This document shows positions 831 to 64,000 of a DNA stretch of 64,000 nucleotides, in pieces. The notes below the pieces were generated by a model. It searched no databases, was not told the origin of the DNA, and saw only the letters and a program-made list of their open reading frames with translations. How positions within the stretch are numbered: the stretch's first letter is position 1; the number at the start of each line of letters is the position of its first letter. The stretch is from an uncultured Chloroflexia bacterium. Its GTDB lineage: Bacteria > Chloroflexota > Dehalococcoidia > DSTF01 > WHTK01. The DNA is taken from assembly GCA_963766645.1 (NCBI GenBank), contig CAVYAY010000003.1, positions 554,926 through 618,925 of the forward strand, written 5' to 3'. The position numbers and the translations under genes were made by a program.

Positions 831-1842
831 ATGGAAGGCAGGCTCTCCTACATTCTTCGGCGCCTGCTGTGGGTGCCCCCCATCCTGCTCGTCGTGACGT
901 TTGCCACGTTCGCGCTGGCGCGCTATCGGCCCGGGAGACCCGGTTCGGGTCGCAGCCGGCAACTTCCGCGACGAAGAGGCCTTCGCGCGCATCCGCGCCG
1001 CCCGAGGCCTCGATAAGCCGATCTACGAGCAGTACTACATCTACATGAAGGACGTCATCACCACGCTCGACTTTGGCGAGAGCTTCCGCTACCAGGGCGT
1101 CTCGGTCAACGAGGTCCTTTTCCCGGCCATGTGGCGCTCGCTTCCAGTACAACATCGTTGCGCTGGTGATCACGATGCTCGGTTGGCATCCCGTTGGGCA
1201 TATTCGCCGCTAGACGGCAGGGCACCTGGGCGGACCCGGCGGCCATCAGCACCTTTCTCTGTGATCCAATCGGTGCCCGCCTTGATCTCGGTGCCGTTTC
1301 TCCTGCTGTTCTTTGCGTTGAAGCTGGGCATTCTGCCGGCCAGCGGCTGGCCCCAGGACTGCAACGTCAGCTGCGGCTTCCTCGGCGATAGCTACGAGTG
1401 CATCGGCGTCATCAGCAAAGAGGCGATGATCCCGCTGCTGGCGCTCTCGTTGCCGGGCATCGCGGTCTGGGGGCGCTTCACGCGCGCCTTCACGCTGGAG
1501 GTGATGAAGGAGGACTACGTCCGCACCGCGCGCTCGAAGGGCCTCAGCGAGTTCACAGTCATGACGCGGCACGTCCTGCGCAACGCTATGCTGCCCCTGA
1601 GCACGATCGTCGTCTTCTCCCTGGTTGGCGCTGCTCGAAGGCTCCTTCTTCGTCGAGACGCTGACCGGCATCCCGGGCGTCGGCCGCCTCGCCTTCGAGG
1701 CCATTCAGGGCCGTGACTACGACATGATCATGGCGATCGTGATGATCGGCGCGGTCCGTCTTCGTCTTCGCCAGCATCGTCGTCGACGTCGCTATACACC
1801 TTCATCGACCCGAGGATCAGGTATGGCGCGCGAGACGTCTGA
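831..1842 (+). CDS. Peptide ABC transporter permease (DppB/OppB-like), frameshifted
   Basis: YILRRLL start, PGDPV, DFGESFRY, EAA-like motif EDYVRTARSKGLSE, ends FIDPRIRY; several 1-nt shifts. Confidence 0.85.
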
Positions 1843-2830
1843 CCAGACGCTCGGTCAGGCTGTTCGAGGACGAGACCAGTCAGCTCGATCAGCCCGCTTC
1901 GGGCTGGCATGGCGGCGGCTGGTCAAGAAACGCATCGCCATGCTCGCGCTGGCGTACATCTGCGTCTTCTACTTCTGCGGCATCACGGCGCCGTTCCTGA
2001 CCGACGCCGGAATCATCCCGTCTTACCGCGAGCAGCACCTGGACTTGCGGCCGCTGGCCAAGGCGCCCGTCCCTGTCACCATCCCTTCGGCACCGACCGC
2101 CTGGGCCGCGACAGCTGAGCCGCGTGATCTGGGCCTCGCAGACCACGGTGATCGTCACCGCTGCTCACGCTGCTGACCGGCGGCCTCGTCCTCGCGGTCG
2201 GCCTGGGCTTGCTCTCCGGCTACGTAGGCGGCTGGGTCGATACCGCTGATCATGCGCGTCGGCGACACCTTCGCGTCCCTGCCGACCATCCTGATGCTGA
2301 TCCTGATCAATGCCACGCTGAAAGACCGCGTCAGCGACCTGGCCGGCAGACGTCGAGGACTTCACCGGCATCGGCGGCATCGTGCAGCCGGCGCGCCGGA
2401 CTACTTCCTGGTCTTCGGCGCGCTGTCAGCTGTTCAGCTGGGTGGGCGGCGCGCGCATCATCCGCTCGCAGATCCTCGCTTTGCGAGAAACCGAGTTCAT
2501 CCTCGCCGCGCGCATGCTCGGCGCTTCGACGCCGCGCATCATGTTCCGCCACCTCCTGCCCAACGTAAGCAACATCATCATCGTCAGCCTGTCGCTGGGC
2601 CTGGCGGGCATCGCCGGCTCGGAAATCGTGCTGACCTGGTTTGGTGTCGGCATCCAGCCACCGCACCCCAGCTTCGGCGCCATGATCTTCGAAGCGTCGC
2701 AGCGTCCGCACCGTCAACCAGTATCCTCACCTGCTGGTCGTTCCCGGGAGCCATCGTGGCCGGCCTGCTCTTCTCCTTCAACCTCCTCGGCGACGCCCTA
2801 ACCGACGTGTTCACGCCCAAAGCAAACTAG
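1823..2830 (+). CDS. Peptide ABC transporter permease (DppC/OppC-like), frameshifted
   Basis: HPFGTDRLGRD, EFILAARMLGAS, RHLLPNV, FNLLGDAL motifs across shifted frames. Confidence 0.85.
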
Positions 2831-50398: not shown

Positions 50399-51374
50399 TT
50401 GGCCGAGATCCGCATCGATAACTACCTCAACAACCACGAGTTCTTCAGCAATATGGCCGAGGACGTGCGCCAGGGCCTCACATCCAGTCCAAAACGTCTG
50501 CAACCCAAGTACCTCTACGACGAGCGCGGCTCCGACCTCTTCGAGCAGATCACCGAGCTGCCCGAGTACTACCCGATGCGTGAAGAGGGAGCGCTGCTCA
50601 ACCTGATCTCGCCGGGTCTCATCGCTTCCATGGCGCCGAGTGAGATTGTCGAGCTCGGCTCCGGCTCCTCGACCAAGACCCGGGCCCTGCTCGATGCGGG
50701 ACGCGCCAACGGCTGCCTCAAGCGCTACGTCGCATTCGACGTCAGCGAGTCGATCGTCCGCCTCGCCGCTGACCGACCTGCTCCAGCGCTACAACAGCCT
50801 CGACGTCTACGGCATCGTCGGCGACTTCCATCGCCACCTCGACAAGATCCCGTCCCATACGGGACGGCGTCTCGTCCTCTTTCTCGGCGGCACCTTGGGC
50901 AACCTCTACCGTGACGAGCGTATCGAGCTGCTGAGCCAGATTGGCGCTTTGCTCGCGCCGGACGACCGGCTCCTCGTCGGCTTCGACCTCGTGAAGGATG
51001 TCGCACTCATCGAGGCCGCCTACAACGACACGCAAGGCGTCACGGCCGAGTTCAACCGCAACATGCTCAACGTCATCAACAATGGCCTCGATGGCGACTT
51101 CGACCCCGACGCCTTCGAGCACTATGCCTACTTCAACACCGAGAACTCCCGCATCGAGATGCACCTGCGCCCGAAGTCAAAGCAGGTAGCGCATCTGATG
51201 AAGCTCGGCCTGACGGTCGAAATAGAGCCCCCGGAGACAATATGGACCGAGAGCTCCCACAAGTTCACACCTGATACGGTACGGCAGATGCTTACAGCGT
51301 CGGGCCTTTCGCTCCGGGAGTGGTACGCGGCACCCGGAGACATGTTTGCCCTCGCGCTGGCTGGCCCCGCCTGA
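50399..51374 (+). CDS. egtD: L-histidine N-alpha-methyltransferase (hercynine synthase), frameshift near 50772
   Basis: PKYLYDERGSDLFEQITELPEYY, ELGSGSSTKT, FLGGTLGN, AAYND, RIEMHL, IWTESSHKF. Confidence 0.93.
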
Positions 51375-51429
51375 CGAAGTGCCATTTGACCCTGACCCCC
51401 AAGCGGCATCTCGACTACCTTCGACCTCG

Positions 51430-51870
51430 GTGAGGTGTTCGATCCGACGAAATTTCCTGTTCGCGGCGTTTGCGATGTTTGCCCTGCTCGGACTGGCCAC
51501 AGCCTGTGGAGGCGGCGATGACGACGATGCAGCCCTCCCGACCGAAGTGCAGCTCACGGGCGCGGACGACGGCGCCGCCGTCCAACTGGCGCTTGGTGGC
51601 CAGCTGATCGTTGCGTTAGCCAGCAATCCCACGACCGGATTCAGTTGGTCGGTCGGCGAGGACTCTGACGCAGGTCTTGTCTTGCAAGGTGACCCACGAT
51701 ACGCACCGGCGGGTTCCACGAGTCCGGTCGTTGGCGCCGGAGGCACCGAGGTCTTCAGCTTCAAGGCGCAGGAGCCAGGAACGTCACACCTGATTCTGGA
51801 ATACAAACGACCGTTCGAACCGGGCGTGGCACCGGAGCAGACCTTTGGCGTCACAGTGGAGATCCGCTAG
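51430..51870 (+). CDS. Chagasin-like (I42) protease inhibitor lipoprotein
   Basis: LATAC lipobox, LASNPTTGFSW, VGAGG, YKRPFE. Confidence 0.85.
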   Translation: MRCSIRRNFLFAAFAMFALLGLATACGGGDDDDAALPTEVQLTGADDGAAVQLALGGQLIVALASNPTTGFSWSVGEDSDAGLVLQGDPRYAPAGSTSPVVGAGGTEVFSFKAQEPGTSHLILEYKRPFEPGVAPEQTFGVTVEIR

Positions 51871-51970
51871 CACCCATCCTGTAAGCATTGCGTAACCCTT
51901 GGGGCGCAGAGGCACGCTAAACTATAAAGCGGTACAGCTCTGTTCCTCTCGTAGCGCTTCAGGGGGCGTC

Positions 51971-53246
51971 ATGAGCACGATGAGACTCGGCCAGCCGGAC
52001 ACGGATCGCGCCTCGCTAATCGAGGCGTTCCGCGAGGTCAGAGCGCAGACCGAGAAGCTCTGCGAGCCTCTGGAGACCGAGGATTACGTCATCCAGTCCG
52101 TCTCCGACGTCAGCCCGCCGAAGTGGCATCTGGCGCACACAAGCTGGTTCTTCGAGCACTTTGTCCTGGCCGAAGCGCTGGCCGACTACCAGCGCTTCCA
52201 CCCCATGTACGCCTACCTTTTCAACTCCTACTACAACCTCGCCGGCGAGTATCACCCCCGCGTCAAGCGCGGCGTCCTCTCCCGCCCTACCGTCGCCGAC
52301 ATCTACAAGTTCCGCGCCCACGTCACCGACCGCATGGCAGACCTGCTCGACAGCGTCACCGACGAGGAGCTGCGTCGAATCGCGCCGACCGTCACCATCG
52401 GCCTCAACCACGAGCAGCAGCATCAGGAGCTGCTCGTCACCGACATCAAGCACATCCTCTGGTGCAACCCGCTGGAGCCGGTCTACCGCGAGCGCGACGG
52501 CACGCTCGCTTCGGAAGCGCGGCCCGATGGGCTGGCTCGAGTTCAAGGGCGGCCTGCACGAGATCGGCTTCACCGAAGGCGGCAGCTTCTGCTTCGACAA
52601 CGAGCTGCCGCGGCACCCCGTCTACATGAACGACTTTCGCATCGCCGACCGCCTCGTCACCAACGGCGAGTACATACGCTTCATAGAAGACGGCGGCTAC
52701 ACACGCTCCGACCTCTGGCTCTCGGACGGCTGGTACGCCGTGAACGAGCAGCGCTGGGAGGCCCCCCTCTACTGGGAGCAACGCGACGGCGAGTGGTGGA
52801 ACTTCACGCTGGCCGGCATGCGCAAGGTCGACCTCAACGAGCCCGTCTGCCACGTCTCGCACTACGAGGCCGATGCCTACGCGCGCTGGGCCGGCAAGCG
52901 CCTCCCTACTGAGGCCGAATGGGAGCTGGCGGCCGCGTCGCAGCCCGTCGAGGGCAACTTTGTCGAATCGGAGCGCTACCACGTCGCGGGCCTCAGCAAC
53001 GGCTCGTCGCAGTTCTTCGGCGACGTGTGGGAGTGGACCGGCAGCGCCTACCTGCCCTACCCCGGCTTCCAGCCCCTGCCCGGCGCCGTCGGCGAGTACA
53101 ACGGCAAGTTCATGTCGAGCCAGATGGTGCTGCGCGGCGGCTCCTGCGCCACGCCCGCGTCGCACATCCGTCCCACCTACCGGAACTTCTTCCAGCCCTA
53201 CCTGCGCTGGCAGTTCATGGGCCTGCGCCTCGCCGAAGACGCCTAG
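51971..53246 (+). CDS. egtB: Ergothioneine biosynthesis sulfoxide synthase, frameshift near 52520
   Basis: SPPKWHLAHTSWFFE, FNSYY, NHEQQHQELL, FDNE, RLPTEAEWE, GEYNGKFM, YRNFF. Confidence 0.93.
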
Positions 53247-53262
53247 ACACCACTAACCGCGA

Positions 53263-53525
53263 TCAACTGTCCTTCAGATAGTCCCCGTGCTCGTAGCACC
53301 AGATCCACGACTCGTCGGTCAGCGGCATGCGCCGATGATCGGGTGGCCGGTCTGCTTCCAGTGCTCCGTGTCGTGTGAGTTCATCGACTCGCAGCAGCCC
53401 ACGAATCCGCAGGTCGCGCACATCCGCGACGGCCCGTTGATGCCGCACACCTCGCACTTCTCCGTGTGAGGCGTGACGTCCGCCTTGATGAACTCCGCGG
53501 CGTGATTACATTCCGTCTTCAGCAT
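53263..53525 (-). CDS. UBP-type zinc finger protein, frameshift near 53333
   Basis: CEVC, RMCATCGFVGCCES, H..H..TGHPII, WIWCY. Confidence 0.85.
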
Positions 53526-53534
53526 TGAGTCCAC

Positions 53535-54710
53535 CTACTTCCAGAGACGCTTCGTGGCCAGCTTCGCGCCCTCGGCCATCGCCTCGAACTTGGCCCAGAC
53601 CACTGTCGGGTGGATCTCCGGGTTGTAGCCCGCCACGGATGAGAAGCCGCAGTCGGCGCCGGCGATGACGCGCTCTTTGCCAACGAGGTCCGCGTGAAGG
53701 ACGATCTGGTCCGCGATCCACTGCGGGTGCTCCACCAGCGCCGTCGCGTGGCTGATCACCCCCGGGATGATGACCTTGCCCTCCGGCAGCTTCGTCTTCT
53801 CCCAGACTCGCCATTCGTGCGCGTGCCGCGCGTTCGCGACCTCGTAGGAGTAACCCGACGCGTTGATCTTGAGCATGAGGTCGAGGAAGTCGGCCAGCGG
53901 CGCGTCGTTCACTCTCGGCCCGATATTGATGCTGTAGCACGTGTGGTAGCGCATGTTCTCGGCGGGGATATTGCGCAGCGCGTAGTTCAGTATCTCGACC
54001 TGCTGCTCGGCCTCCAGGCGGCGCTGCTCCGGCGGCGCCGTGTCGTGGCCGTACATCGTCGCAAACGTCGGGTCGTCCACCTGCAGGATCAGGCCCGAAT
54101 CGACGATCGCCTTGTACTCGACCGCCAGCGCGTCCGCGACGGCCTGCATGTACTCCTCATCCGTCGTTGTAGTACATGTTGCGGCCGGGCGCGCGCGGCG
54201 CCATTGCCGGCATGAAGCCGAAATTCGCGCCCGTCGCCGCAATCGCCGCCTTGAGATTATCGATGTCGCGCTGCAGGTCCGCCATGCCCGTGTAGGTCAC
54301 GGGGGCTGCTGCAGACCAGCGGCGTACGCTCCTCCTCGATCGGCTTGCGATCGTCGCGCTGCTTCTCGTACCACGCGTAGTACTCCGGGAACGCCAGCGT
54401 CTCGCGCGTGTCGCCCCAGCGCCCCATCGCGATTGGCGCGCCCTCGGGTGACGGCTCGAAGCCGCCAAGACGGTGCCGGATGTAGACGTTGAAGCTCGTC
54501 TTGCTGATCTCGCCGTCGCAGACGACGTCGACGCCGCACTCAACCTGCTTGCGGACGATCTCTTCGACGCGCCTTACGCAACACCGGGTTGAACGTCGCA
54601 TCGTCGACGCCATGCCCGCGGATGCGAGCCTGGATCATGTCAAGGATGTGATGCGGCCGCGCCAGGCTGCCGACGTGCGTCGTGAGGATGCGGTCCGTAT
54701 TCTCCTGCAT
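53535..54710 (-). CDS. Cobalamin-independent methionine synthase II (MetE C-terminal-like) family protein, frameshifted
   Basis: RILTTHVGSLARP, DGE, LQVDDP, HTC / E / DCGF Zn ligands. Confidence 0.88.
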
Positions 54711-54858
54711 GGCAGATGCTCCTAGCTGCTAATCCTAGCGCGAGGGTGTGAATACGCTAACGAATCCTGAACTTCAGGGCCAGTGGTACCCGTTGCATGG
54801 CAACCACTCTGCCTCACCCGTTAGTGAGGTATTGGGGTCAAACCCCCAAACCTTCAAG

Positions 54859-55920
54859 TCAAAGTTTGATTGGAGCCGTGAAGTTGCGCTTCGTGCGCTC
54901 GTCGCCCGGCGAGAAGTTTGGCAGTACGGTCGATACACCGGCATTCGGGGCGCCGGAGACGACAAGCAATATCGAGTCCGGGCCGCGGGCGCCGTGGATG
55001 AACGCGTCGTCCGCCTCGCCTTCCAGACCGAGGATCTTGCCATAGCTCGCAAGCTGCGCCTTCGTCCTGCCCCAGTTCTCCCAGAGGAACTGCTTCGCGT
55101 CAGCCTTCGACCAGCCCTTGCTCGCCACGATGTTGGCGTGCTCCGGCCCCATCAGCAACACGCAGCACGAGTTCTGGTTATACGGCGGCGCCTCGTAGAT
55201 GCCGCCCGCGTAAGACATCGAGTCCGCGATCGTCATCAATATTTCTTCCGGCGTCTGCGTGCTGCGGTGCTCCACGTGCAGGTCAGAGCGCACCATCGCG
55301 ATCGTCGCCGTGCTGACATTCGCGTCGAATCCGCGCTCGACGTGCAGCGGTTCCCACGGACTGTCTTCTTCGTTCTCGGCGATGAACAGCGCGTACTTGC
55401 ACGGCGTCCCTTGCGTGCTCTGGTCGAACTCGTGCGGCTTCACGCCGAGCACGTTCATGATGATCAGGCGCATCGCGCGACCCAGCGTCGAGTTCGCGCG
55501 GTCACCCGGCCCCAGGATGTTCTCGAGGTAGTTGATCCCCAGCGCGTTGCGCACCGGCCCGTTGACGATGACCATCGTCGCCTGGCCCGTCGTGCTCTGC
55601 AGCAGCCCGCCGCCCGAGTCGATGCCCTTCAGCGCGTCGAGCGCTGCCAGCAGCACCGGAAAGTACTCCGGCTTGCAGCCCGCCATGACCGCGTTGATCG
55701 CCGCCTGGCGGACGTTGCAGGTGCGGTTGAGATGGTGCTGCACCAGCAGCACGTCGTCCGGGCCGCGGTCCGTCTGCGCCAGCATCTCGACGACGAACTC
55801 CTCGACCGGCGGAACGACGGGCAGGCCGTCGGTCCAGCCTTGCTCGAAGTAGTACTCCATCGCCTCGCGCGCCTTGCGCACGTCTTCGAAGGTCAGGTCT
55901 TCGACGGACCACGTCGTCAC
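54859..55920 (-). CDS. Conserved hypothetical protein (UGSC partner)
   Basis: GWTDGLPVVPP, AINAVMAGCKPEYFPV, NGP, RANSTLGRA, ENEEDSPW; directly downstream of the UGSC gene. Confidence 0.85.
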   Translation of the reverse strand: MTTWSVEDLTFEDVRKAREAMEYYFEQGWTDGLPVVPPVEEFVVEMLAQTDRGPDDVLLVQHHLNRTCNVRQAAINAVMAGCKPEYFPVLLAALDALKGIDSGGGLLQSTTGQATMVIVNGPVRNALGINYLENILGPGDRANSTLGRAMRLIIMNVLGVKPHEFDQSTQGTPCKYALFIAENEEDSPWEPLHVERGFDANVSTATIAMVRSDLHVEHRSTQTPEEILMTIADSMSYAGGIYEAPPYNQNSCCVLLMGPEHANIVASKGWSKADAKQFLWENWGRTKAQLASYGKILGLEGEADDAFIHGARGPDSILLVVSGAPNAGVSTVLPNFSPGDERTKRNFTAPIKL

Positions 55921-55930
55921 AAGCGCACTC

Positions 55931-56452
55931 CTATTTGAGCCCGAGAATCTCGATCACCTGCGGCAGCACATCCAGGGCGCGCTGCTTGATCTGGTCGTCT
56001 TTGAGATTGCCGATTGGATGCGGCACCATCGCGTACTTGAAGTCGGGGTATCCGTTTCGTCTCGCCATGGCGTTGCCCGCGCGCGTGAACTGATGCGTGA
56101 TTACGCAGGCCGTCGGGATGCCGCGCTTCTCGAAGAGGGTTGCGTCGGCCACACTGGCCGCACTGCAGCTTCCTCAATCGCCGACGCCCGCCAGTACGGC
56201 GTCGCACTCCTCCACCATCTCATCCAACGTGGCGTCCGGCGCTGGCAACGAGAAGCTGGGTTTGGTGTGGTGCACGACGGCCTTGACGCCGTACCGCTCA
56301 GACAGCAGCTCGCCAATCGCGTAGAGCACGGCGTCGGCGTTGAGCTTCGAGTTGCTCAGCAGGCCAAGCGTCTTGCCGCGTAGCGTACCGGGACGCGGCG
56401 CCAGCAGCTCTCGTCCCTCCTGCGAGGAGCCCTCCGGGTTGAGCAGGATCAT
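55931..56452 (-). CDS. UGSC-family selenoprotein (Sec at TGA 56174-56176)
   Basis: ORFs 56174..56452 and 55931..56152 are in frame across one TGA, giving GVGD-U-GSCSAASVADA..EKRGIP..VPHP. Confidence 0.88.
56132..56173 (-). promoter_or_regulatory. SECIS-like hairpin of the UGSC gene
   Basis: TGCGGCCA-GTG-TGGCCGACGCA beginning about 11 nt 3' of the TGA. Confidence 0.6.
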
Positions 56453-56632
56453 CTACCGCTCCTTCTTCCGTTCATCCGCCCGCATTGTACGATGCGTCCT
56501 CTCGCCGCACGCCCCCTGAAGGGTGAACCTGCAACTGGTAAAATGTCCGGTCCGTGTCAGCCGAGGGTTTCAACCCTCAGGTTTGATATCTCACTAACGA
56601 CCCGAGACGATGGCTCTGCGCCCAAACCGCCG

Positions 56633-58004
56633 TTAACCCGCCAACGCTGCCTTGACGGCGCGCACCAGCGCCGCGTGCTCGCGGTTCGCCACGCTGCGCG
56701 GGTCCAGCAGCAGCCGCCCATCTTCAATCCGGCCCACGACCGGCGTCTCGCCCTGCCGTAGCCGCTTCGCCAGCGCCTCCAGCGCTGCGCCGCTTGCCGC
56801 CGGGATCGCGACGAGCTTCGTCGGAAGGCTCTCCTCCGGCAGGCTGCCGCCGCCGATCATCGACCGCCCATCCACCACGGTCGCGCCTTCGCCGATGCAG
56901 ACGCGCCAGCGCGCCGCGCTGTCGCCGTGATTTCCGCCAGAGGCGCGGCGATCATGCGCCAGACCGGCACCTCGCGCTCCGCTTCGCCCTTGGCGTAATG
57001 CAGCAATGTGGCGTTGAGCCCCGCGATGCTCGCCTTGTCCATGCGCAGCGCCCGCGCCAGCGGATGCCGCCGCAGCTGCGCGATCAGCTCTTTCTTGCCT
57101 ACGACGACGCCCGCCTGCGGCCCGCCCAGCAGCTTGTCGCCGGAGAACATGACCAGATCGGCGCCGGCGCGCGATGCTCGCCTGCGGCGTCGGCTCCTCG
57201 CTAAGGCCGTAAGCTCGCGTATCGAGCAGGCAGCCGCTGCCGAGGTCGTCCAGCAGCAGCACTCCGCGCTCGTGCGCCAGCATCGCCAGCGACTCCAGCG
57301 AAGCGCGCTTCCACGAAGCCGACGACGCGGAAGTTGCTGCTGTGCACTCGCATCAGCGCCGCTGTCTCTTCGCCAATCGCATCCTCATAATCGCGGACGT
57401 ACGTCCGGTTCGTCGTCCCGACCTCGATCAGTCTCGCGCCGCTCTGCGCCATGACGTCCGGTATGCGGAACCCGCCACCAATTTCCACAAGTTGGCCACG
57501 CGAGATCACGACCTCGCGGCCCTGTGCCAGCGCGGAAAGCGCCAGCAGCAGCGCCGCGGCGTTGTTGTTGACCGCGATCGCTGCCTCGGCGCCGGTGACG
57601 CGGCAGAGCAGCGCCTCCACGTGGTCGTAACGGCTGCCGCGCTCCCCGGCCTCCAGCTCAAACTCGAGGTTGCTGTAGCCACGGCCGATGGCGCTCATCG
57701 CAGCGATCGCCGCGTCCGAAAGCGGCGCACGTCCCAGGTTCGTGTGGATGATCACTCCCGTCGCGTTGATCACGGGGCGCAGGCTGGCGCGCAACGATGC
57801 GTAGGCGCGCTCGGCCGCCGCGCCCGCTATCGACGCCAGCGAAACATCGGCGCCGCCGTTCTGCAGGGCTGCCCTTCGCTCCGTCAGCTCGGCGCGAACA
57901 GCCTCCGTCGCCGCCGCACTGCCGACCTCGGCTATAGCGCGCTGCAGCGCCTCGTCCGCAAGCACGCGGTCGACGGAAGGTAGGCGGCGGTACTGGTTCG
58001 TCAT
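56633..58004 (-). CDS. selA: L-seryl-tRNA(Sec) selenium transferase, frameshifted
   Basis: [62 protein letters not shown]. Confidence 0.95.
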
Positions 58005-58101
58005 CAGGTCGATTCTACGACTTCTCGCTGCCTCAACTGAGGGGATCGCCTGATTGCGAGGATCGTTAGAGAGGCACACAGTGTGCGCGTGAGGTGACGT
58101 T

Positions 58102-58224
58102 ATGTCAGAAAGCGACTCCGAAACACGCACCGAGTCCACCCGCCGCCTGCCCCTGAAGGCGTGGCTGTTCGCGGCCCTGCTCTTCGTCTTCGGCATCCGG
58201 ATGCTGACGGCTGGGGAGCGCTGA
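58102..58224 (+). CDS. 40-aa membrane peptide
   Basis: SD GAGGTG, MSESDSETRTESTRRLPLKAWLFAALLFVFGIRMLTAGER; stop is 1 nt before the next start. Confidence 0.5.
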   Translation: MSESDSETRTESTRRLPLKAWLFAALLFVFGIRMLTAGER

Positions 58225-58225
58225 C

Positions 58226-58681
58226 GTGTGTTGCCGCACCGTCGTCAGGCCACTCAACCCCGAGCTGGTACGGGCGACATTGACGGTCGGTCAGTTCAAG
58301 CCCGTGTACTTCGCGCCTGACCGGCCCGACCTCGCGACGCGCTGGGAGCGCGACGTCCCCGAGGAGTCCGCCACCGTAACCGTCCACGTGGTCAACGACG
58401 GCATCGAGCTCAGCATCTCACCGGCCATCAGCCACTACGATCACCACATGGGCAAGCGTATCGCCGCCGGCATCTACTTCGAGATCGCAGCGCGCTACGC
58501 CGAGAAGGTGGGTGGCACGGTCATCCAGCGCGCCACCGTCGAGGGCTGCACGTCAGGCCAGGGTTCCAAAGAGCTGCTGCTGGCGTCCTATCCCGCGATG
58601 CCGCTCAGCTTCGAGCGCATCTGCAACGGCTTCCAGGACGCCATCTTCGGCGAGGAGTACGCCCACCACCACGCGGCCTGA
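58226..58681 (+). CDS. Hypothetical Cys/His-rich protein
   Basis: 151 aa, native high-GC3 codon style, SD GGGGAG, MCC start and HHH end. Confidence 0.75.
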   Translation: MCCRTVVRPLNPELVRATLTVGQFKPVYFAPDRPDLATRWERDVPEESATVTVHVVNDGIELSISPAISHYDHHMGKRIAAGIYFEIAARYAEKVGGTVIQRATVEGCTSGQGSKELLLASYPAMPLSFERICNGFQDAIFGEEYAHHHAA

Positions 58682-58683
58682 AG

Positions 58684-59088
58684 CTACTCGGCCGTTACCT
58701 CGCCAGACATCACCTGCGGACCGTAGATCGGGCAGAAGAACTGGAAGGTGCCCGGTTCTGTCAACGTAAAGCTGACGATCTTCGTCTCGCCCACCGCGAT
58801 CGGGTTGCTGTCCACGATGCTGCCGATGCGGAAGCGGTGCGCCTGCGTACCAATGTTGACCAGCCGGATCGTGAACTGCTTGCCGACTGGCACCGTAAAC
58901 TTCGCTGGAGTGAACACGTAATCGGTACCGTTCGGGCCGGTCGGACCGTCCATCGTCAGTTCGAGGTCCACGACCACGTTGGCGTCGGCATTCGAATCGT
59001 TCTTGTTATCGCCGCCGCCGCCCGTGAACAGGATCAGGAACAAGGCAATGACGGCAATGATTCCGCCGAGAACGAGCAGGTTCTTCAA
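58684..59088 (-). CDS. Membrane-anchored cupredoxin-fold protein
   Basis: YVFTPAKFTV, NIGTQAH, PGTFQFFCPIY..MSG; SD GAGGTGG. Confidence 0.8.
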   Translation of the reverse strand: MKNLLVLGGIIAVIALFLILFTGGGGDNKNDSNADANVVVDLELTMDGPTGPNGTDYVFTPAKFTVPVGKQFTIRLVNIGTQAHRFRIGSIVDSNPIAVGETKIVSFTLTEPGTFQFFCPIYGPQVMSGEVTAE

Positions 59089-60706: not shown

Positions 60707-60804
60707 TGGCGGGAGTGCGAGGGAGTCGAACCCTCCTTTCAACACGCAGGTGCCGAAACAACGATTTTGAAGACCGCAGAAGCCACCGGGCCCCATCCAC
60801 TCCC
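60707..60804 (-). tRNA. selC: tRNA-Sec (anticodon UCA)
   Basis: GGGAGTGG..6-bp D stem..CT-TCA-AA..long variable arm..GGTTCGACTCC..GCCA; 98 nt; between selA and selB. Confidence 0.95.
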
Positions 60805-62612: not shown

Positions 62613-64000
62613 ATGTTCGTGATAGGCACCGCCGGCCACGTCGACCACGGCAAGTCGGCGCTGGTGCAGGCCCTCACCGGCATCGACCCGGACCGGCTCC
62701 AGGAGGAGAAGGACCGCGGTATGACCATTGACCTCGGCTTCGCCTGGATACGGCTGCCCGGAGGCACCGAGGTCAGCATCGTCGACGTGCCCGGCCACGA
62801 GCGCTTCATCAAGAACATGCTGGCCGGCGTCGGCGGCATCGACCTGGCGCTGCTCGTCATCGCGGCGGACGAGGGCGTCATGCCCCAGACGCGGGAGCAC
62901 CTCGCCATCCTCGACCTGCTCGGCGTGCAGCGCGGCGTGCTCGTCGTGACCAAGTCAGACCTCGTCGAACCCGACTTCCTCGACCTCGTTGCGGCGGACG
63001 TCGAGGACGTCGTCAAGGGCACGACGCTGGAGGGTTCGCCCCTCGTGCGCTGCTCCGCCGTCACGCGCGAAGGCCTGGACGAGCTGCTGGACGTGATCGA
63101 GCAGCGCCTCTCCGAGACGGAGCCGAAACGCGACCTCGGCCGCCCGCGCCTTCCCATCGACCGCGTCTTCACGATCGCCGGTTTCGGCACCGTAGTCACC
63201 GGCACGCTGATCGACGGCACGTTGAGCGTCGGCCAGGAGGTCGAGATTATCCCCGCGGTCGAGGGCGGCCACCTGACGACGCTGCGCAGCCGCCTGCGCG
63301 GCATCCAGACGCACCGCAGCAAGGTCGAGCAGGCGGAGCCCGGCACCCGCACCGCTGCCAACCTCGCCAACATCGAGCCCGACCAGCTATCGCGAGGCCA
63401 GGTCGTGACCACGCCGGGCTGGCTGCGCCCCTCCGAAGCCGTCGACGTACGGCTGAAGGCGCTGGAGTCGCTGGGGCGGCCCCTGCGGCACAACCTCAAC
63501 GTGACGTTCCACAGCCTCGCCGCCGAAGCCCCGGCCCGCCTGCGGCTTCTCGAAGTCGACGAGATGCTGCCCGGCGAAGAGACGTGGGCGCAGCTACGCC
63601 TCTACAAGCCCACCGCCGTGCTCAAAGGCGACCGCTTCATCATCCGCGACGCCAACGACACGCTGGGCGGCGGCGTCATCGTTGAGACGCAGGCGAAGCG
63701 CCACCCACGCCGTCGCCCCGGCGTCATCGCCGCGCTGGAGCGCCAGCAGTCCGGGGACCCCGCCGAGACCGTCTACGCCGCTATCGCCGCGTCCGAGCCC
63801 GCCGAGCTGCGAGCCGTCCTGACACGAACCGACCTCCCCGCCGGCGCCGCGGCGGAAGCCGTAGGCGCGCTGGTCAGCACAGGACGCATCGTCCTCCTCG
63901 GCGAGGGTGACACGCGCACCGCCTACACGGCAGGCGGATTCGAACGCCTGCGCCTGAAAACGCAGTCAACGGTCGAGGCGTATCTCAAGCAGAACCCACT
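62613..64000 (+). CDS. selB: Selenocysteine-specific elongation factor, 3'-truncated by the window
   Basis: [54 protein letters not shown]. Confidence 0.96.

Follow-up and report, generated by a model that had tools for sequence, protein, structure and literature searches.

The stretch of DNA analysed here (the window) comprises 64,000 nucleotides of contig CAVYAY010000003.1 in the genome assembly of an uncultured Chloroflexia bacterium, and our subject is a pair of adjacent genes on its minus strand, one encoding a small selenoprotein of the UGSC family and the other a larger partner protein of an unnamed family. The UGSC gene (55931-56452, minus strand, 173 aa) contains an in-frame TGA (56174-56176, minus strand) that is read as selenocysteine (Sec, U) at residue 93, within the motif D-U-G-S-C. 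It is followed on the same strand by a hairpin resembling a selenocysteine insertion sequence (SECIS), whose core (56146-56160) begins 14 nt after the UGA and consists of a 6-bp stem with the loop GUG. The partner gene (54859-55920, minus strand, 353 aa) starts 10 nt after the UGSC stop, where an earlier reading of the window from its letters alone (hereafter the sequence-only reading) had placed a conserved protein of that length. In the comparison of this locus with others, UGSC and its partner stand out as a self-contained and widely conserved two-gene unit.

Translated with TGA as U, the reading frame 55931-56452 holds one TGA only, in the context AGVGD-U-GSCSAASVADATLFEKRGIP. Its product matches PF24696 with 201.1 bits (cut-off 25, model positions 2-170 of 172) and NF041046 with 151.1 bits (cut-off 125), and by these profiles the gene is unremarkable within a known family of orphan selenoproteins, with which it shares the full-length match, the U-G-S-C motif and a clear preponderance of Sec over Cys. 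This family is the 'UGSC-containing protein' of Zhang and Gladyshev 2007/2008. When 23 UGSC genes are aligned, all 23 have TGA in the same column, which is invariant together with Gly94, Ser95, Cys96, Asp103 and Pro146, and conservation runs on past the TGA to the C-terminus. Matches to UGSC occur in 60 of the 151 genomes of the class that we compared, and among the matches listed for the class every one (150/150) has exactly one TGA; the five copies in the window's own genome have a TGA each. Relatives that lack Sec carry Cys in its place, as GDCGSC in two fused proteins (P0122, P0123), CSTC in P0136 and CGLC in P0138.

The hairpin behind the TGA is not significant when the window sequence is folded by itself (z -1.38). 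Its stem, however, is kept across 22 UGSC genes, in which bases 17-22, counted from the U of UGA, pair with bases 26-31 around a loop G-U-N. Compensatory changes are found at three pairs of the stem, one of which is UA, GC or AU depending on the gene, while two more alternate between GC and CG. The covariation score is 0.240, compared with 0.074 in shuffled alignments (0 of 500 shuffles scored as high) and with at most 0.081 in controls in which the pairing partner was slid along the sequence. Covariation thus supports the hairpin but falls short of proof, the sequences being related and coding. Translation, the alignment of 23 genes and this covariation all bear out the in-frame TGA with hairpin that the sequence-only reading had proposed.

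It could be argued that poor assembly quality has produced a spurious UGSC reading, the TGA being either a normal stop codon or a sequence error. The genome is represented by four contigs with 67% marker completeness, its assembly contains many single-base indels, and within the window selA and the two genes that follow the partner, encoding a MetE-catalytic-domain-like protein (53535-54710, minus strand) and a zf-UBP zinc-finger protein (53263-53534, minus strand; PF02148, E 6e-9), are out of frame, as are egtD and egtB (50399-53246, plus strand). The upstream neighbour of UGSC, selA (L-seryl-tRNA(Sec) selenium transferase, 56633-58196, minus strand), is split by four extra bases, with TIGR00474 matching both pieces. 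Compared with an 87%-identical ortholog, three single bases are inserted in the MetE-like gene and one is missing from the zf-UBP gene, near 53332. These breaks were checked against contigs assembled independently from four public runs of one soil-metagenome study; the best-covering sample may be the one from which the window was assembled. The independent contigs lack the extra letters at 53531, 54166, 54302, 54569/54570, 56898, 56911, 57172 and 57306 (the last four, those of selA, are absent from the contigs of run X1) and have one added letter at 53331/53332. Since the contigs differ from the window at precisely these single bases, we conclude that the three broken frames (selA, MetE-like and zf-UBP) reflect indels in the assembly consensus and not pseudogenes. 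The selA gene is in a single frame in four genomes of the same genus, and its split here is an assembly artefact rather than a loss of the Sec pathway.

Within 54859-56452, which spans UGSC and its partner, the independent contigs report no indel, and the TGA codon itself falls outside their cover, in a bin that they hardly reach. Against an artefact stand the identical position of the TGA in genes from many genomes and its presence in all listed matches, the conservation that persists downstream of it, the covarying hairpin, and the occurrence of the Sec machinery in the same window: besides selA, there are a tRNA-Sec (60707-60804; detected by ARAGORN, and by Rfam RF01852 with 64.8 bits) and selB (62613-63998, plus strand, running past the window end). 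We find an artefactual TGA hardly credible in view of this, and on the strength of the sequence comparisons we count UGSC as a selenoprotein.

The association of UGSC with its partner is seen at several scales. Counting copies over the contigs of the window's own genome, there are six of the partner, and for five of these the gene directly ahead on that strand is a UGSC copy. One of the pairs is a natural 611-aa fusion, with UGSC at the N-terminus (L012:9338-11173). The partner family is large: 7645 of the 8000 candidates scored are matches, and every named one is a 'hypothetical protein'; the representatives of clusters at 50% identity number 4542 at E<=1e-3, 2962 at E<=1e-10 and 934 at E<=1e-30. 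Fusion to UGSC recurs among them. Of 60 long relatives (619-2000 aa), 49 contain PF24696, three a flavin adenine dinucleotide (FAD) or pyridine-nucleotide oxidoreductase domain, one a redoxin/thioredoxin domain, and one each an AMP-binding, glyoxalase, methyltransferase, fn3 or zf-CDGSH domain, with no domain in the remaining two. Likewise, PF24696 is found in 36 of the 57 representatives of at least 405 aa among the best 150. Several fused representatives (P0183, P0124) start just past the Sec position, and are therefore Sec-type fusions cut at the TGA by gene callers.

Of the other genomes, 59 have a UGSC match, and in 20 of these we surveyed 12.5 kb around the best one, taking one locus per genome by our own choice, five of them from one genus. 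The partner is adjacent to UGSC in 16 of these loci, 2.2-2.5 kb away in two, and not found within 6 kb in two. The phyletic pattern over the 151 genomes is as follows: both genes are present in 58, UGSC only in two (G074, and G146, whose UGSC match is below the cut-off), the partner only in none, and neither in 91. As related genomes are not independent, these figures are better read with the genus-level counts, which are 39 for UGSC and 38 for the partner out of 110.

The genus of the window's own genome offers a natural experiment on the limits of this unit. Three genomes (G156, G155 and G166) keep the order selA, UGSC, partner, MetE-like, zf-UBP, followed by egtB and egtD on the opposite strand. 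A fourth, G164, keeps the order egtD, egtB, zf-UBP, MetE-like, selA, the last two being only 93 nt apart, and neither the UGSC nor the partner profile has a match anywhere in this genome (92% complete, 8 contigs). A fifth, G019, has the orthologous pair among unrelated genes, with 71% DNA identity over 54910-56372. The absence of both genes from G164 despite its flanking synteny, together with their presence in another neighbourhood in G019, shows UGSC and the partner to be a two-gene cassette, and the MetE-like and zf-UBP genes to be a separate pair.

These comparisons also bear on a broader proposal, that of the sequence-only reading, in which the run from selA through UGSC, the partner and the MetE-like gene to zf-UBP is one selenium system, where a Zn-thiolate protein of MetE fold couples selenol chemistry to thiol alkyl transfer. 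Its description of the local gene order was correct: the MetE-like and zf-UBP genes do lie downstream of selA in the same orientation, all on the minus strand; the four genes are co-oriented with one another, the order is kept in the three genomes just mentioned, and the intact MetE-like ortholog (L065:982-2160) passes PF01717 with 38.7 bits (cut-off 21). Beyond that, the linkage dissolves. The MetE-like gene, zf-UBP and selA are each absent from all 20 other UGSC loci, and G019 and G164 separate the pair from its local neighbours in both directions, the former by having the pair elsewhere and the latter by having selA, MetE-like and zf-UBP while lacking UGSC and partner altogether. A gap of 148 nt separates the partner gene from the MetE-like gene. 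Only one of the six partner copies in the own genome, that of the window, lies within 70 kb of any of the 43 MetE-like matches. The MetE-like family is itself abundant, with 40-43 copies in the own genome (at least 40 per genome) and members in 15 of the 17 other genomes of the genus. Thus, the sequence data largely refute the one-system proposal, which we consider very unlikely: the MetE-like gene, zf-UBP and the place behind selA are local accidents at this window, and coupling to thiol alkyl transfer is left without comparative support, both zinc-protein genes falling outside the unit. What stands of the claim of a two-subunit selenol-dependent enzyme is the pairing, backed by adjacency, fusion, co-presence and joint insertion or deletion; what finds no support is the alkyl-transfer coupling, the membership of the two downstream genes and the link to selA.

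As for these neighbours themselves, the intact MetE-like ortholog reaches 82.6 bits on NF003317 (cut-off 406), so that by NCBI's cut-off the protein appears to be a superfamily member and not a methionine synthase. Outside the genus the family was found in 1 of 23 genomes, compared with about 40 copies per genome within it. The intact zf-UBP ortholog (106 aa) scores 52 bits on PF02148; its gene is single-copy in the own genome and follows the four closest MetE-like orthologs and none of five more distant paralogs. Divergently from selA lies an open reading frame (ORF) of 151 aa (58226-58681, plus strand) with no Pfam match and 77-91% identity in three genomes of the same genus, adjoined by a cupredoxin-like gene (58684-59088). 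A sigma-70 promoter scan of 53100-58400 gave no sites, and such terminator-like matches as there were lay on the plus strand throughout and did not exceed chance. Among the public runs listed as covering the stretch, none was of RNA.

Elsewhere in the own genome, a 17-kb cluster (L012; G000:C1:552000-571900, G000 being this genome) holds four partner copies, three of them with UGSC (one fused) and one alone, among genes for two family-III CoA-transferases, an enoyl-CoA hydratase, an HpcH/CitE-like lyase, an alpha/beta hydrolase and a LysR regulator, as well as a thioredoxin reductase (TrxR) and a DUF255 thioredoxin-domain protein. Four of the six partner copies of this genome have a TrxR gene no more than 8 kb away. 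Just upstream of the fused UGSC-partner gene, a small ORF with a CxxC motif (L012:9061-9303, minus strand) weakly resembles NifU, scoring below the cut-off (E 0.002), and a stretch judged by eye to be similar is found at the N-terminus of two Cys-type fusions (P0122, P0123); this CxxC stretch near or within fusions may be an electron-donor module. The genes around UGSC in other genomes were surveyed as 104 ORFs from 16 of the 20 loci (L049, L052, L054 and L055 were dropped as same-genus repeats, as were ORFs centred beyond about 4.4 kb from the middle of the locus). Among these ORFs, acyl-CoA dehydrogenase was met five times, and CoA-transferase III, FAD_oxidored and MFS three times each, a weak hint at acyl-CoA metabolism from a survey that had no background control.

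The UGSC model (mean predicted local distance difference test, pLDDT, 93.1) consists of five beta-alpha units; strand 85-91 leads into a helix that begins with Sec93. Its best Foldseek match has E 2.6e-4 and a template-modelling (TM) score of 0.43, the matches being flavodoxin-like/Rossmann-like or generic alpha/beta domains, and in VIA 1905 chains match at Z>=5, the highest Z being 10.9. The fold matches listed by Foldseek and VIA include no thioredoxin. UGSC is thus predicted to be a small flavodoxin-like alpha/beta domain, rather than to have the thioredoxin-like fold suggested in 2008. A search of PDB sequences with UGSC gave chance matches only (E 0.004 and above). In the ESM Atlas, the clusters recovered were unnamed or had a minority of PF24696 members (16% and 41%).

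The partner has no Pfam or NCBIfam match even at E<=10, and its profile has no match among PDB sequences at E<=1. Its model is of similar quality (pLDDT 91.3, predicted TM score 0.91), and the best Foldseek matches are class I fumarate hydratases (E 6e-4, TM 0.24-0.28), followed by cyanuric acid hydrolase or barbiturase (E about 5e-3, TM about 0.2). An exhaustive comparison with 48161 chains in VIA returned none at Z>=5, the top matches being a chorismate mutase (Z 4.5; residues 209-338, 89 residues) and 7xky_A (Z 4.3, 190 residues). On the predicted model, then, no clear relative was found among solved structures for what would be a new family; a new fold is not thereby proven. An alignment of 57 sequences has P34, A74, G81, C82, G121, N143, R148 and G323 as invariant residues, and the near-invariant ones include D31, N76, R141, E182 and W189. 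Cys82 (codon 55675-55677) lies between two helices, in the motif NAVMAGC+PE.

The closest resemblance of UGSC to a characterised system is with selenoprotein B. Among 101 genomes of the class, 12 have canonical gene pairs encoding GrdE-like (PF09338) and GrdB-like (PF07355) proteins (loci L075/L074, at G000:C2:11034-13380, and L077-L094, the own-genome copy being split by an indel). Each of the 17 GrdB-like genes has a TGA (Sec) exactly where its Pfam match stops, which the search took for the end of the frame, and what follows is G-[TS]-x-T-R-[CS]-G-A...E..G[IL]P...[IV]PHPxG. An hhalign comparison of UGSC with the GrdB-like proteins including this Sec tail, with Sec written as C in both alignments, gives a probability of 95.35% (E 2e-8, 87 columns); UGSC 82-173 aligns to GrdB-like 337-426, placing Sec on Sec, E..GIP on E..GLP and PHPIG on PHPLG. 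The controls, UGSC against the Pfam part of GrdB-like and against GrdE-like, yield 0.3% and 0.64%. The likeness of the Sec site to that of GrdB, pointed out by the sequence-only reading, therefore holds at profile level, and the evidence for common ancestry of the Sec module of UGSC and the Sec-bearing C-terminal part of GrdB-type proteins is good but not final.

What UGSC shares with selenoprotein B of glycine/sarcosine/betaine reductase (GrdB/GrdF/GrdH, PF07355) is a Sec in U-G-[ST]-x right after a beta strand, with E..G[IL]P and [IV]PHPxG behind it, and what the pair shares with GrdB/GrdE and with D-proline reductase (PrdB/PrdA) is a Sec subunit encoded beside a larger partner subunit. The differences are as marked: with 173 aa, UGSC is without the GrdB body of about 340 aa, and its partner is unrelated to GrdE/PrdA. 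Both Sec and pyruvoyl have roles in the GrdB and PrdB enzymes. We considered the partner as a proprotein of the GrdE/PrdA type (PF09338), which was ruled out by the lack of a Pfam match and an hhalign probability of 0.09% against GrdE-like. Neither UGSC nor the partner matches PF07355 at E<=10. By these profiles, UGSC resembles the Sec module of protein B while standing outside PF07355, and the partner is not a pyruvoyl proprotein of known type. A PrdB-like selenoprotein gene proper lies 2.4 kb past the window end (G000:C3:621358-621720 and upstream sequence; L076 about 1099-1863, minus strand), with PF07355 matching at E 4e-11 and an in-frame TGA in ILIPV-U-PQC-TRA; with this gene just outside the window, two U-x-x-C selenoprotein genes, UGSC and the PrdB-like one, flank the Sec machinery locus.

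Adjacency, fusion, joint presence or absence and joint insertion or deletion all indicate that UGSC and its partner behave as two subunits. We think it probable that they are two parts of one autonomous selenoenzyme, which in many organisms is a single fused chain. In such an enzyme the partner would supply the substrate pocket and the invariant Cys82, together with the conserved Asp, Asn, Arg and Glu. The selenolate of Sec93 would attack a substrate held by the partner, or would reduce partner Cys82, and the attack would drive a two-electron reductive cleavage or reduction. An Se-S bond would then form with Cys96 (or Cys82), and would be reduced by a thioredoxin-type system. A donor of this type is suggested by the minority of partner fusions to flavoprotein reductases or redoxins, and by the TrxR and DUF255 genes in the own-genome cluster. 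In our judgement, the comparisons show that UGSC is a selenoprotein, that it is obligately paired with the partner or fused to it, and that its Sec module is like that of GrdB; physical contact between UGSC and the partner, the chemistry, the electron donor and the binding of substrate by the partner are what we infer.

Another division of labour between the two proteins deserves attention. UGSC could be a dedicated selenol/thiol redox carrier in the style of thioredoxin, the chemistry being done by partner Cys82, which UGSC would re-reduce once oxidised. The U-x-x-C motif is typical of redox carriers, and UGSC has this centre at the start of a helix as thioredoxin-type U/C-x-x-C proteins do; the invariant Cys82 of the partner is at a helix start too. 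A further link to thioredoxin-type proteins is given by the fusions of the partner to thioredoxin-fold and flavoprotein reductase domains: in P0130 and P0125, redoxin/thioredoxin or flavoprotein reductases are fused to the partner in place of UGSC, as if they were interchangeable donors. However, the detectable relative of UGSC is the Sec module of GrdB, a subunit of a substrate-specific enzyme and not a general carrier, and the predicted fold, with its five flavodoxin-like beta-alpha units, differs from that of thioredoxin-type proteins, which are missing from the fold matches listed. We therefore regard a carrier role as possible but doubtful.

The reading of UGSC and the partner as one selenoenzyme has to be weighed against a number of results that speak against it. 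Two of the surveyed loci, L044 (in G048) and L045 (in G109), are those without a partner within 6 kb, and in G074 no partner match was found at all alongside UGSC. TrxR occurs within 6 kb in just 1 of the 20 other UGSC loci, fusions to redox domains are a small minority of partner fusions, and the neighbour survey revealed no conserved third gene, the neighbours varying between loci. The GrdB likeness spans only UGSC 82-173 and comes from shallow alignments (Neff about 3), and the comparison of UGSC with the single PrdB-like sequence just outside the window is not significant (1%). The hhalign figure of the partner with GrdE-like reveals no GrdE/PrdA kinship, and that with the GrdB-like body is 0.15%; as the partner is unrelated to either, pyruvoyl chemistry is not transferable to it. 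Lastly, the literature searched holds no biochemical datum for UGSC or the partner.

A more specific version of the selenoenzyme can be formulated, which we offer as a speculation and think rather unlikely to be right in full. UGSC and its partner might constitute a minimal, pyruvoyl-independent counterpart of protein B, in which a stand-alone Sec module of GrdB type docks on a catalytic subunit whose fold is unseen in solved structures, and which, in aerobic bacteria of soil and water, cleaves a C-X bond of CoA esters or small organic acids reductively. In a bolder variant still, the invariant Gly81-Cys82 of the partner might be a site of self-processing from which a new prosthetic group arises.

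The family has a modest record in the literature. A passage of an early paper presents UGSC as a selenoprotein of unknown function (PMC1976440, 2007). Passages of a second one place it among the major selenoprotein families of the Global Ocean Sampling (GOS) data, with 255 Sec versus 21 Cys forms, suggest a thioredoxin-like fold for it, and note a 'UGSC/Unknown_1' fusion in Figure S1A (PMC2398784, 2008). In passages of two recent papers it is listed as uncharacterised (PMC9312934, 2022; PMC13188914, 2026). The passages of these four papers agree with the sequence-only reading, which had called UGSC a selenoprotein without known function, and no functional study of it was found in the literature searched, supplements lying outside the scope of the search.

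UGSC itself, then, was already published as an orphan selenoprotein, and the pair described here is a variant of the protein-B-type selenoenzymes with an unrelated partner. After nearly twenty years as an orphan, UGSC is now open to experiment, given its obligate partner, its Sec module of GrdB type, and the invariant Cys that this partner carries in a fold without solved relatives. The UGSC-partner pair is thus still worth experiments.

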